Positions 5,622 through 23,711 of a DNA stretch of 64,000 nucleotides are shown here, piece by piece (position 1 is the first letter of the stretch; every line of letters begins with the position of its first letter). Position numbers and translations under genes: made by a program. The notes below the pieces were generated by a model, which had not been told where the DNA came from, ran no database searches, and worked only from the letters and a program-made list of their open reading frames with translations. The DNA is from Dictyostelium discoideum (lineage: Eukaryota), in assembly GCA_000004695.1 (NCBI GenBank), contig CM000152.2:1280001-1344000 (forward strand), read 5' to 3'.

Positions 5622-8868
<3,247 letters not shown>

Positions 8869-18187: not shown

Positions 18188-19957
18188 TTATGTTTCGACA
18201 TGATTATTAGAAGAACTATGGTGATGATGTTTCCAAGGGAAATGGAAATGGTGATGCTCATGATCACCTTCACTTTTATGATGTTGATGATTGTGATCAC
18301 CTTCTTTTGGTGAACCAAATAATTTAGCGATTGAATGTCTTCTGAAATGATTAAAGAAACCTTTCTTTCTCTCTTTTTCAGGTGAGGTAGAAAGTGGTGG
18401 AGAAATTGAACCATGACTGTCACCTATACTACCACTTGGACTATGTTTCTTCTTTGGTGTACCAATTTTGTGGAGATGACCATGAGGAAGATCAGAAGAT
18501 TGTGACAAAGGACCACTACCAGAACTTAATTCCAAAGCATTTAATTCAACAGGATGGGAAGCAGCTCTTGGCATATTAACCAAATCTGGATTACTTAAAT
18601 TTTTATTCTTCAATTCTAAAGAGGAGGATGATTTATTTAAAGAGGAAGGCTTTATATTCTTTTGTAATGGACTGTTGACAACATTACCATGATTATAATG
18701 TTCAGGAGAGGAAGGTCTTGAACTATCTGGTGAGGGAGTATTTGAAGAAGCTGGTGACATTGATTCACGATATCTATCTTCACATGGAGTCAAACCATGA
18801 AGTAAATGAGAGACTATATAATTGTTTTTCTTTGCTTGTTTGAATACTTTATGTTCCAATAGTTTGGAGGCATTTGGTCTTTTTGAAGGCTCTTTTTGGA
18901 GACACTTATCGACCAAATCCTTGTAGAGATGACTACAGACACCTTTATCCTCTTCCTCTTGAAGTGATGGTGAATTGCCAAATAATAAATTCATAAATAC
19001 TTTTGATGGAGGTAAATCGTAACCTGGTGGTTTTCCTCTGATCAATTCTATTGCAGTGATTCCAAATGACCATATATCAACGCCTTGATTATAGCCACGT
19101 TCTGATATGATTTCAGGTGCCATCCAACAAGGTGTACCAACGATAGTTTTTCTACTACAACATGTATTCTTTTCAAACATTGCACTAACACCGAAATCTG
19201 CCAACTCAATTGCACCATCTTCACCAATTAAAATATTATCACTCTTTAAATCTCTATGAATTCTTTGATGAGAATGAAGGTATTCCAAACCTTTCAATAG
19301 TGATTTCAATACAGTTACTGCCAACACCTCTGGGATACCATCTGGATATTTAAATTTCATAATGTCAGCTAATGAACCACCACCTAAATAATCCATAACC
19401 AACCAAAGTTGATTATTCTCCAAGAAAGAGGTATGATAATGAATGAGGTTTGGATGATTATTACCATTCATTACTTTAACTTCCTTTATAACATCCTTTA
19501 CAAATTGTGGATCCATTTTATCCAATTCCACTACTTTGATTGCAACATTCTCTTTCAATGGTATACAATAGGCTTTGAAAACTCTACCCTCTGTACCTTC
19601 ACCAATTGGTTCTATTAAATTGTATTGATTGGCTTGAGATGGATAATCTGATATAGTTTTAATTTGTTGAAGTTCTCTAATAATTGATTCTCTTCTTTCA
19701 TTAGAGATAACTTCTGAAATATGACTTGGTAATTTCTTTTTTTCTCCTATTGGTTCTTTACCATTGCCACCACCACTACTATTCATTAATTCCTCTTCTC
19801 TTGATGATGAATCAGAATCACTATCTGGTAAATCATGATGATTGGCATGTTCTATTCTATTATGTTGTGCACAAACATAATTATTATTATTATTACTATT
19901 ATTAATTTCCATTTTAAGTTTAAATGATACTTTTTTTTTTTTTTTTAATAACTTCAT
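18188..19957 (-). CDS. STE20-family Ser/Thr protein kinase of the OSR1/SPAK (Fray) subtype with a His-rich C-terminal tail (about 575-589 aa)
   Basis: Complete kinase domain (GEGTEG loop, VAIK, HRDLKSDNIL, DFGVS). The activation segment VGTPCWMAPEI, then GYNQGVDIWSFGITAIEL and CLQKEPSKRPNASKLLEHKVFKQAK, match OSR1/SPAK nearly residue for residue. The first ATG (19957) lies in an A-run; the second ATG (MEINNSNN, about 19912) may be the true start. Confidence 0.85.
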   Translation of the reverse strand: MKLLKKKKKVSFKLKMEINNSNNNNNYVCAQHNRIEHANHHDLPDSDSDSSSREEELMNSSGGGNGKEPIGEKKKLPSHISEVISNERRESIIRELQQIKTISDYPSQANQYNLIEPIGEGTEGRVFKAYCIPLKENVAIKVVELDKMDPQFVKDVIKEVKVMNGNNHPNLIHYHTSFLENNQLWLVMDYLGGGSLADIMKFKYPDGIPEVLAVTVLKSLLKGLEYLHSHQRIHRDLKSDNILIGEDGAIELADFGVSAMFEKNTCCSRKTIVGTPCWMAPEIISERGYNQGVDIWSFGITAIELIRGKPPGYDLPPSKVFMNLLFGNSPSLQEEEDKGVCSHLYKDLVDKCLQKEPSKRPNASKLLEHKVFKQAKKNNYIVSHLLHGLTPCEDRYRESMSPASSNTPSPDSSRPSSPEHYNHGNVVNSPLQKNIKPSSLNKSSSSLELKNKNLSNPDLVNMPRAASHPVELNALELSSGSGPLSQSSDLPHGHLHKIGTPKKKHSPSGSIGDSHGSISPPLSTSPEKERKKGFFNHFRRHSIAKLFGSPKEGDHNHQHHKSEGDHEHHHFHFPWKHHHHSSSNNHVET

Positions 19958-20794
19958 TTTTATGTATTATTTTATTTTATTTTTTTAACACAAAAAAAAA
20001 AAAAATAGGAAAAGGAAAAGGGAAAGAAAAAGAGAAAAAAAAAAAAAAAATAGGGAATAGGGAATGAATTAATAAAAAAAAAAAAAAAAAAAAGTTTAAA
20101 ATAATAACATTAATATTACAGATAATTTAATACAATAGTATAAGAAAAAGAAGAAATTAGTGTAAGTATAATTGGATTAAATTTAAAACGGCTAAATTTT
20201 TTTTTTTTTTTTTTTTCCAAATTGGATTTTTATTTGCCAATTTTAAAAAATAAAATAATAATTAAATAAATAAAATTATAATAATTACCTTTTTTTTTAA
20301 AGTATCGTCAAATTTTATAATTTATCTGTATCTTGAAAAAAAATTTGTTTTTTAATTTTTTTTACTCTTTTGTGTGTAGAAGCTATATTATTATTATTAT
20401 TATTATTACTGTATTATAAGTAATTGCTGACACAAAATATTTTTAAAATAAAATTGTGCGTGGGTGTTGAAATATATATTGGTTTATATATATTTTATTT
20501 ATATGGTGATATTTTTTTATTTTTTTACTATATATATATAATTGCGTTGTTGGGTACTACTAGTATTTAAACTTTAACATTGAATATTTGATTATTCCTA
20601 GTGTTACTATTATTTATATTTTATATTTTATTGTATTATTAGTGGTGGTTCACTTTAATATTTGAAACCAATGTAATCTTTTTATTATTAATTGAATCTA
20701 AGGCTTTTAATATAAAATCAAAAACCAAATAAATAAATAAATAAAAACCCTTCGGGGATATTATAATGAGATGAATGTAAATTTAATATAATGT

Positions 20795-20870
20795 ATAAAG
20801 TGTGGGTGTTGTGGTGTGTGTGTGTGTGTGTTTTTTTTTAGTGTGGGTTTTTTTTCTTTTTTTTTTTTTT
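20795..20870. promoter_or_regulatory. GT-rich G-box / CA-rich (CAE-like) element block about 850 bp upstream of the OSR1-like kinase gene
   Basis: gtgtgggtgttgtggtgtgtgtgtgtgtgtg...tagtgtgggtt seen directly. Established knowledge: Dictyostelium GBF binds such G/GT-rich boxes in developmentally regulated promoters. Confidence 0.3.
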
Positions 20871-22734: not shown

Positions 22735-23065
22735 TTTTCCAGTAACGTTCAGAGAAAGAATTAAAATATTCGAAAATGATTTTGTAACGTTGCATTTTTT
22801 TTTTTTTAATTTTTTTTTCCACCCCTTTTCCCAAATATTTTTTTGGGCAACCCAAAGTTAAATATTGATTTTTTATTTTACACAGTAACGTAATTTCTTT
22901 GTAATGAATTACATTTTAAAAAAAAAAAAAACTTATTAATTTAGGTTTTGTAACGTTGAATTTTTTTTTTTTTTTTTTTTTTAAAACGTTATAAAAAGGA
23001 ATTTTTTTTTTCAAAGTGTTTCATTAAAAAAAAAAAAACAAAAACAATAACGTTGCTAAATAAAA
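22735..23065 (+). promoter_or_regulatory. cluster of six (T)GTAACGTT(G) motifs (palindromic AACGTT / ACGT core) upstream of the His/Gly-rich gene
   Basis: Copies at about 22741 (agtaacgttc), 22786 (ttgtaacgttgcatttttt), 22877 (cagtaacgtaat), 22947 (ttgtaacgttgaattttttt), 22985 (aaaacgttat) and 23052 (aataacgttgct). Two copies are identical 19-mers except for one base. The surrounding DNA is over 90% AT. Confidence 0.4.
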
Positions 23066-23120: not shown

Positions 23121-23711
23121 ATGGAAAATCAAAAACAATCAGAATCAAATAATATTGATAACAACAACAATTCATCATCATCATCACCATCATCTCCAGT
23201 ATTTAAAACAATTTTTGAAAATTTGCCAAGTGATGTAAAGGAAAGAAAACAATACATTTACCAAATTAAAAAAGCTCTTAAAGATGAAAAAAGAAAATTA
23301 AAAGAATCAAAACCTGAAAAGTATGCTAAACATTGCAAGCGTGAAAAACATGAAAGTCATCATTTCCATGGTCTCCACTTCCATCCAGAGCATCAATTCG
23401 GAGGACACCACTTTGGTGGTCATCATCACCATCATGGTGGTCATCATCATCATGGTCATCATCATGGCCATCACCATGGTGGTCATCACGGACATCATTT
23501 CGAAGGTCGTCACGGTCATTCTCAAGATATTCAAGGTTGTAGTACTCCAAATAAAATTAACCTTTTAAATAAAAAAAAACAAGTTTTAATTGCTAAAACC
23601 CAACTCCTTGAAGCAAAAATAGCCACATTGAGTGAAATCAACCAAAATAAAACTAGCACACCACCACCAACTTCAATTGAATCAGTTGTTGGAACTTTTA
23701 GTCAAATGTAA
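23121..23711 (+). CDS. His/Gly-rich protein (196 aa) with a (GHHH)n-like array; candidate metal-binding protein
   Basis: Intact ORF with an ATG start. Central segment HESHHFHGLHFHPEHQFGGHHFGGHHHHHGGHHHHGHHHGHHHGGHHGHHFEGRHGH, a K/E-rich N-terminal half and a coiled-coil-like C-terminus. Antisense and alternate-frame ORFs over it (23307..23568) are artefacts. Confidence 0.5.
   Translation: MENQKQSESNNIDNNNNSSSSSPSSPVFKTIFENLPSDVKERKQYIYQIKKALKDEKRKLKESKPEKYAKHCKREKHESHHFHGLHFHPEHQFGGHHFGGHHHHHGGHHHHGHHHGHHHGGHHGHHFEGRHGHSQDIQGCSTPNKINLLNKKKQVLIAKTQLLEAKIATLSEINQNKTSTPPPTSIESVVGTFSQM

Follow-up and report, generated by a model that had tools for sequence, protein, structure and literature searches.

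Boxes upstream of a His/Gly-rich gene in Dictyostelium discoideum

We analyzed a 64,000-nucleotide stretch of D. discoideum DNA (assembly GCA_000004695.1, contig CM000152.2, positions 1,280,001 to 1,344,000), which belongs to chromosome 3 of strain AX4 and is referred to below as the window. It has a G+C content of about 20% with long A/T runs, and carries a gene for a 196-amino-acid His/Gly-rich protein, preceded by a cluster of short sequence boxes. A first-pass annotation had reported six copies of an AACGTT-based motif just upstream of ATG 23121, and we relocated all six at 22742-23054; the ATG opens a 196-codon open reading frame (ORF). We write the box as an 8-mer, R-TAACGT-W, with the consensus R-TAACGTT (R = G/A). 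Two 19-mers that the annotation described as one base apart were confirmed at 22782-22800 and 22948-22966, and are each other's sole matches in the window at up to three mismatches. Several details had to be corrected. Only two of the boxes fit the full motif, TGTAACGTTG. The region is 80% AT (83% outside the boxes) rather than over 90%, and the spacing, given as about 45-95 bp, ranges from 33 to 101 bp. The elements of the promoter are listed in Table 1.

Table 1 Elements upstream of the His/Gly-rich gene, in window coordinates
Feature	Sequence	Position	Strand	Remark
Box 1	GTAACGTT	22742-22749	+	Same in the second D. discoideum strain (L001)
Box 2	GTAACGTT	22784-22791	+	Within 19-mer 22782-22800; 27 bp upstream of the C-rich element
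C-rich element	CCACCCC (GGGGTGG on the other strand)	22819-22825		Resembles a Dictyostelium G-box/CAE half-site
Box 3	GTAACGTA	22885-22892	+	Imperfect copy; forms element 22885-22905 with the GTAAT repeat
Direct repeat	GTAAT-N6-GTAAT	22890-22894 and 22901-22905	+	Period 11 bp; follows box 3
Box 4	GTAACGTT	22950-22957	+	Within 19-mer 22948-22966
Box 5	ATAACGTT on minus, AACGTTAT on plus	22985-22992	-	Abuts the TATA box
TATA box and oligo(dT) run	TATAAAAAGG; T-run at 23002-23011	22990-23011	+	Typical Dictyostelium core promoter
Box 6	ATAACGTT	23047-23054	+	59 bp downstream of TATA, 70 bp before the ATG
His/Gly-rich gene (196 amino acids)		23121-23711	+	ORF from ATG 23121

The cluster is genuine and non-random. 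TAACGTT occurs six times in the window against 5.7 expected, and five of the six copies fall within 313 bp (22742-23054). The same interval holds six of the 11 copies of TAACGT and four of the five copies of GTAACGT, for which 1.06 would be expected in the window. None of 2000 first-order Markov simulations produced a 330-bp cluster of at least five TAACGTT or at least six TAACGT, and the Poisson probability of at least six boxes at the local composition was 2e-8. With six copies in 313 bp, the region has the makeup of a homotypic site cluster (at least three motif copies within a few hundred bp, above chance). Repeat finding returned no third 19-mer copy in the window and no repeat family beyond A/T-run similarity. 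Neither an Rfam nor a tRNA scan found a match in the intergenic region or the window, and a bacterial promoter/terminator scan, whose models are unsuited to a eukaryote, stayed at background.

The first-pass annotation had read the spacing as a sign of cooperative binding. The distances between successive boxes are 42, 101, 65, 33, and 64 bp and are unequal between the two D. discoideum strains. Helical phasing gave uncorrected Rayleigh p values of 0.03 at 10.0 bp, 0.2 at 10.5 bp, and 0.99 at 11 bp, which we take as negative. Cooperative binding at regular spacing is thus not supported: the intervals are not kept, and no phasing with the helix holds up.

Conservation of the boxes in orthologues and a paralogue

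We found orthologues of the His/Gly-rich gene in a second D. discoideum strain (locus L001), in D. dimigraforme (L002), and in D. firmibasis (L003). The ends of the protein are conserved, and the His tract is highly variable in length. The neighbourhood of the orthologue in D. dimigraforme and D. firmibasis differs from that in D. discoideum. As a global MAFFT alignment of the four orthologous promoters was poor outside the boxes, we compared the promoters site by site. D. dimigraforme has five boxes and D. firmibasis six, in both orientations, in the roughly 550 bp upstream of the orthologue. The elements appear in a constant order: one or more distal boxes, a box about 20-30 bp upstream of CCACCC, the arrangement AACGTAATTT-N-TGTAAT, a TATA box with a T-run, and a box 38-59 bp downstream. 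Between the two D. discoideum strains, none of 36 box columns differs, whereas 61 of 407 other columns (15%) do, and the core of box 4 is unchanged despite an altered 5' flank.

A profile search also revealed a paralogue, DDB_G0277209 (124 amino acids), which shares the N- and C-terminal motifs without the His tract and has orthologues in D. cf. discoideum, D. dimigraforme, and D. citrinum. In an exhaustive profile search, no relatives appeared beyond the D. discoideum clade except repetitive proteins. Each of five paralogue promoters (D. discoideum, two D. cf. discoideum strains, D. dimigraforme, and D. citrinum) carries two to five boxes, including CCCACCAATAACGTTAT and, in D. dimigraforme, one that abuts TATA. 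Also among these boxes is AAAACGTTAC(C/A)AACAA, 36-40 bp after a core of TATAAAA(A)GG plus T-run.

Six independent promoters contain 27 sites in 3.3 kb (8.2 per kb), compared with 17 in 124 kb (0.14 per kb) of other Dictyostelium DNA, a ratio of about 60-fold (Poisson P ~1e-38). The first-pass annotation had named two observations that would speak against the motif, a similar density elsewhere and membership of a dispersed repeat family. The density is far from similar, and no further copies of the unit and its flanks were seen in the roughly 130 kb of Dictyostelium DNA scanned. The boxes are therefore neither background nor a dispersed repeat, and both objections fall away. Judged by these sequence comparisons, the boxes are kept under selection in orthologues and paralogues while the flanking DNA has diverged beyond alignment, which supports the annotation's view of a promoter-proximal cis-regulatory cluster. 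We conclude that the boxes are, in all likelihood, functional factor-binding sites.

The alternative that they have no function, as a chance cluster, a low-complexity artefact, a repeat remnant, or a feature inherited with a duplicated promoter, could draw on two facts: two boxes of the reference strain AX4 lie in near-identical 19-mers, a possible local duplication, and the promoter layout of the paralogues is shared by descent. Against it stand the simulations, the lack of any other 19-mer copy or repeat family beyond A/T runs, the 60-fold density, and the zero box substitutions between strains. The boxes also persist amid unalignable flanks, switching orientation yet keeping their core. We regard this reading as effectively refuted, with a negligible remaining probability.

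A D. cf. discoideum assembly (GCA_054859205.1; L008, 4690-5355) contains a decayed copy of the His-rich gene, whose reading frame is broken by a stop at codon 3, by further in-frame stops, and by two or more frameshifts. The annotation lists this copy as a 120-amino-acid fragment (P0014), and its neighbourhood is again a different one. The roughly 260-bp region upstream of this copy has no TAACGTT boxes, and the DDB_G0277209 paralogue of the same genome has kept two. Most of the presumed 5' untranslated region (UTR) of DDB_G0277209 is filled by a long (AAAT)n microsatellite in D. discoideum and D. cf. discoideum (L004 4890-4998, L007 4905-5000, L012 1430-1490), which is absent in D. dimigraforme and D. 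citrinum.

One-sided selection within the box

We derived the composition of the motif from 29 sites. Position -1 is G in 16, A in 11.5, T in 1.5, and C in none, so that a purine is present in 27.5 of 29. TAAC is invariant (29/29). The two bases after TAACG are TT in 27 of 29 sites, with TAACGTA at two sites and TAACGAT at two; position 6 is T in 27 of 29 and A in two. The mirror position (+7) is at background (A 12, T 11, C 3, G 3). Selection is thus one-sided despite the AACGTT palindrome, since only one flank is constrained. Such a pattern would be expected of a protein that reads an AAC core as an oriented monomer, or of a heterodimer with unequal halves, more than of a symmetric dimer. 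A TAACGA variant occupies the same place in three paralogue promoters of two species, with TAATGA in a fourth. In two promoters the sequence immediately 5' of a box is CAACTG, which resembles a c-Myb site.

The first-pass annotation had proposed a bZIP-like or other dimeric factor; a symmetric dimer of the bZIP type sits poorly with the one-sided flank and the recurring TAACGA variant. A wider form of it deserves consideration, in which ACGT-core sites such as the T-box AACGTT are bound by a homo- or heterodimer of the 19 D. discoideum bZIP proteins, with no link to metals. The palindromic AACGTT is found in 24 of 29 sites and the ACGT core in 27, and nearly all CpGs of these promoters lie inside ACGT. 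In D. dimigraforme and D. firmibasis, CCACGTGG or TTACGTGG comes 7 bp after a box, and in D. dimigraforme GTTACGTAAT, of the TTACGTAA type, overlaps a box. Moreover, bzpH and bzpD are cup-enriched, and a heterodimer would be compatible with an asymmetric flank. The main point against a bZIP factor is that full palindromes are not favoured: the test for dyad symmetry into both flanks failed, with R and T fixed on one side only. The ACGT-breaking TAACGA variant is a second. Furthermore, the characterised Dictyostelium sites differ: BzpF binds TGACGTCA, the canonical cyclic AMP response element (CRE; PMC2873529), and the DimB consensus, A-c/a-A-C-a/c-t/a-C-A, is unrelated to the boxes (PMC2845816). 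Neither the CRE nor its half-sites occur in the nine promoters that our known-site scan covered. We know of no characterised bZIP with a TAAC half-site. ACGT-core elements (plant T-box AACGTT, PAR/Yap TTACGTAA, CRE TGACGTCA) therefore resemble the boxes in their core and palindromic hexamer and have CCACGTGG, TTACGTGG, and TTACGTAA as neighbours in two species, but the flanks here are asymmetric and the CRE is missing. Overall, a bZIP factor seems unlikely, and a Myb type is favoured over it.

The neighbouring ACGT elements lie at L002 5657-5664 (CCACGTGG, D. dimigraforme) and L003 5639-5646 (TTACGTGG, D. firmibasis), immediately 3' of a TGTAACGTT box, and GTTACGTAAT, a perfect PAR/Yap-type site, at about 5808-5817 in D. 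dimigraforme. These extra elements are not in D. discoideum. Other candidates for the boxes were dropped, namely the RFX X-box half-site, whose RGYAAC suits only some of them, and the Forkhead motif RYAAAYA.

Comparison with Myb sites and metal-response elements

The closest described Dictyostelium site is that of MybE, a SHAQKY-type Myb protein of the same organism, in which AAC and GTT are likewise inverted. It is active in anterior-like and cup ('ancillary stalk') cells, where both genes studied here are enriched. It differs in an extra central A/T; the boxes are one base shorter and have a 5' T and a purine fixed as well. The MybE site is reportedly present in the ecmA (ecmO) and mrrA promoters, in work said to go back to Fukuzawa in 2006 and Tsujioka in 2007. 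The boxes also share with the c-Myb site YAAC(G/T)G an oriented, asymmetric T-AAC-G core, used in either orientation and in multiple copies, but position 6 is T here and not G. Trichomonas Myb proteins recognise TAACGA-type elements, and some of the promoters contain this variant as well as the adjacent CAACTG. The published MybE consensus, A-A-C-a/t-G-T-T, is based on three sites, two of them in ecmA and one in mrrA (Yamada et al. 2010, PMC2845816). According to its authors, the MybE and DimB consensus sequences are too loose for target prediction; they saw no enrichment of the MybE consensus in MybE-dependent promoters and call for a better definition of it (PMC2845816). From this resemblance and the form of the motif, we tentatively propose a Myb-type factor, MybE or a relative, as a possible reader of the boxes.

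The scan of the nine promoters gave zero matches for YAACGG and GATA, as well as for the metal-response consensus sequences (MTF-1 TGCRCNC, Zap1 ACCTTNAAGGT, Ace1/Mac1 TTTGCTC). The latter bear on the suggestion of the first-pass annotation that the cluster is a metal- or stress-responsive enhancer driving a metal-binding protein. A long His/Gly tract could chelate Zn, Ni, or Cu. However, the paralogue bears the same boxes without the tract, which disfavours the idea, the His tract being its only support. The length of the tract also varies greatly among species while the boxes stay constant, and the available expression data indicate a cell type, the cup, rather than stress. We therefore consider a metal or stress response very unlikely.

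Expression of the two genes in cup cells

Window ORFs are identical to AX4 DDB_G0278861, the kinase gene fray1 (DDB_G0278863), sctA, AIP1, gnpda1 (DDB_G0278873), and PRA1 family protein 1, and the GenBank and dictyBase identifiers follow positional order (EAL68032 = DDB_G0278861, EAL68033 = DDB_G0278863, EAL68038 = DDB_G0278873). Because of this order, and because exactly three genes lie between fray1 and sctA, the His/Gly-rich ORF is very probably DDB_G0278865. The gene at 23121-23711 is annotated in two NCBI assemblies.

According to Kin et al. 2018 (PMC6198379), DDB_G0277209 stays silent through growth and early development, rises from 16 h, and goes from 0.3 to 24.7 over 0-24 h. It reaches 46 transcripts per million (TPM) in purified cup cells of the fruiting body vs. 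0.7 in spore, 1.2 in stalk, and 0.8 in vegetative cells (PMC6198379). For DDB_G0278865, the values are 103 TPM in cup vs. 2.3, 17, and 19, respectively (PMC6198379). Both genes belong to a conservative cup-specific set of 742 genes (PMC6198379), or about 5-6% of the genome when the 13,562 promoters given in PMC2845816 are taken as the gene count. The cup-enriched transcription factors are srfA, mybE, bzpH, a cudA-like gene, an NF-X1-type gene, and bzpD, and mybE reaches 903 TPM in cup vs. 52 in stalk and 164 in spore cells, an 8.4-fold enrichment (PMC6198379). Expression driven by ecmO in pstO and anterior-like cells, from which the cups arise, depends on MybE. Thus, in the territory of MybE (pstO, anterior-like, and cup cells), both genes are cup-listed and mybE is cup-enriched, with the identifier of the His-rich gene taken from its position.

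Both genes are absent from a life-cycle proteome. Neither the SpaA paper nor that of Kin et al. reports promoter motifs, and the two genes have no main-text mention in the searchable literature. The novelty claimed by the first-pass annotation held up to the same extent: we found no description of the box (GTAACGTT, TAACGTTA) in the searchable literature, older subscription papers lying outside it. The cluster is apparently an undescribed example of a familiar class, the homotypic promoter site cluster.

A proposed promoter code for a two-gene family

The explanation that best covers these observations, and that we hold to be probable though by no means certain, is a homotypic cluster for one factor that co-regulates a two-gene family. 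This family would comprise the His-rich gene and DDB_G0277209, in the D. discoideum clade only. A single sequence-specific factor would recognise R-TAACGTT in either orientation, and the boxes, the C-rich CCACCC element, and the TATA/T-run core would together control transcription of both genes. Because of the clustering statistics and the conservation, co-regulation of this young family by one factor appears well supported at the sequence level. The co-enrichment of the genes and mybE in one cell type, together with the resemblance of the motifs, suggests that the boxes may be activator sites for late or cup (anterior-like-cell-derived) expression. On the same evidence, a Myb-type factor may read their AAC core, and the box may be a zero-spacer relative of the MybE site AAC(A/T)GTT.

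Dictyostelium genes generally follow a layout of TATA box, oligo-dT run, and cap site, from which transcription would start just downstream of the TATA/T-run. Box 6 thus probably lies in the 5' UTR or at its start, and the last box of the cluster would be at or just after the transcription start. This placement bears on another possibility, that the boxes are real sites acting negatively, keeping the genes off in spores and stalk, or serving as core-promoter or start-site elements specific to the family. One box abuts TATA, and six promoters have a second one 36-41 bp beyond TATA (59 bp in D. discoideum), at or after the presumed start. In addition, spore expression of both genes is very low, and MybE and DimB are reported to repress many genes besides activating others. 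On the other hand, the upstream boxes face either way and their distances vary, as would be expected of enhancer-type sites, and a homotypic cluster upstream of TATA is a typical activator arrangement. Sequence by itself does not show whether a site activates or represses. We consider a negative or structural role improbable.

Several points limit or weigh against the favoured explanation. The match of DDB_G0278865 to the ORF comes from positional identifier numbering rather than a direct record, and the motif scan extends over about 130 kb of Dictyostelium DNA rather than the whole genome. Of the nine promoters, only that of the D. dimigraforme paralogue contains the literal MybE site, AACWGTT, and in one copy; the canonical c-Myb site YAACGG is absent from all nine. 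Neither gene is among the DIF-induced genes of Ax2, mybE-, or dimB- cells in a monolayer microarray of limited coverage, and neither appears in the SpaA chromatin immunoprecipitation tables examined. Finally, the time courses are unlike, with DDB_G0278865 also expressed in growing cells, at 81 at 0 h (Parikh time course), and the paralogue strictly late (PMC6198379). The boxes alone are therefore not the determinant of timing, and other inputs matter.

A bolder form of the Myb proposal is that R-TAACGTT is the true, or an alternative, high-affinity site of the Myb-type regulator or regulators that switch on cup-cell genes. We judge this doubtful. If true, the two-gene family would be a near-pure target set and would offer the first sharply defined cis-code for cup or ancillary-stalk expression, along with a bait for the factor. 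Cup cells arose only within group-4 dictyostelids, and the link would then bear on how a recently evolved somatic cell type gained its expression programme. Should the cup link prove false, the box would still be a well-supported, if unremarkable, element in the promoters of two lineage-specific genes. Well-defined transcription-factor sites are scarce in Dictyostelium. An 8-base motif that is rare elsewhere, present in 3-6 copies, and conserved in other species and paralogues is a clean reagent, usable as an affinity bait, as a pattern for a genome-wide search for co-regulated genes, or as a compact reporter promoter.

Other elements of the promoters

A CCCACC or CCACCC block is present in seven of nine promoters. 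In paralogue promoters, it directly abuts a box (CCCACCAATAACGTTA; GGGTGGGTAACGA), and in D. dimigraforme and D. firmibasis a box AACGTTAC in the opposite orientation lies upstream of CCACCC at a distance like that of box 2. GBF acts on G-box or CA-rich modules in post-aggregative promoters such as those of cotC and cprB. Those modules likewise place short C-rich CCACCC/CCCACC sequences in AT-rich DNA near other sites of developmental promoters, but consist of paired CA/GT-rich half-sites. Here, each promoter has one short block whose form is not uniform across the nine, with a second CCC run nearby in some. The DUSE of Dictyostelium non-coding RNA genes, [AT]CCCA[CT]AA, was dropped, as the C-rich block does not match it. 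The stretch from the C-rich element to box 3 also contains an inverted repeat, TTTGGG-CAA-CCCAAA, at 22842-22856. The second D. discoideum strain has a broken version of it (TTTGTGCAACCCAAA), so the repeat is probably non-functional.

The arrangement AACGTAATTT-N-TGTAAT that includes the direct repeat is also found in D. dimigraforme and D. firmibasis. Directly after box 3, at 22900-22913, is a perfect palindrome TGTAATGAATTACA (TAAT-N2-ATTA) that the second D. discoideum strain also has. D. dimigraforme and D. firmibasis share only the GTAAT-N6-GTAAT repeat and not TGTAATGAATTACA. A paired-type homeodomain site was dropped on this ground, as the palindrome is present in D. discoideum only.

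The His-gene promoters of the two D. discoideum strains and the five paralogue promoters all have TATAAAA(A)GG followed by a T-run, and the D. dimigraforme and D. firmibasis His-gene promoters have TATAAAT with a T-run. The junction of box 5 and TATA, AACGTTATAAAAA, recurs in the D. dimigraforme paralogue promoter. A box, mostly AACGTTAC, is located 36-41 bp downstream of TATA in six of eight promoters, and at 59 bp in both D. discoideum strains.

The encoded protein and neighbouring sequences

The 196-amino-acid protein consists of a conserved K/E-rich N-terminal segment, the His/Gly tract, and a C-terminal probable coiled coil; a Pfam search of it returned no domain. The model of the orthologue in the second D. 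discoideum strain (P0010, 262 amino acids; L001 6001-7533) splices past the conserved ...FSQM stop and gains about 66 residues. This extension is probably an annotation artefact, because the extra residues are absent from the other orthologues. The paralogue profile also matches a 3944-amino-acid protein (P0019) in 29 separate stretches (E = 2e-41), which is probably a K/E-rich repetitive protein and not a true relative.

The C-terminus of fray1 (18188-18330, minus strand) also has a His-rich tail (...GDHNHQHHKSEGDHEHHHFHFPWKHHHHSSSNNHVET), so that this pair of divergently transcribed neighbours has His-rich segments in both products. The 3.1-kb intergenic region between fray1 and the His-rich gene contains a dense GT-rich block (GTGTGGGTGTTGTGGTGTGTGTGTGTGTGTGT ... 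AGTGTGGGTT) at 20800-20849, with further sequence of this kind at 20457-20472. The block at 20800-20849 resembles the GBF-bound G-box or CA-rich elements of post-aggregative promoters, and could be an element of fray1 or a distal element of the His-rich gene.

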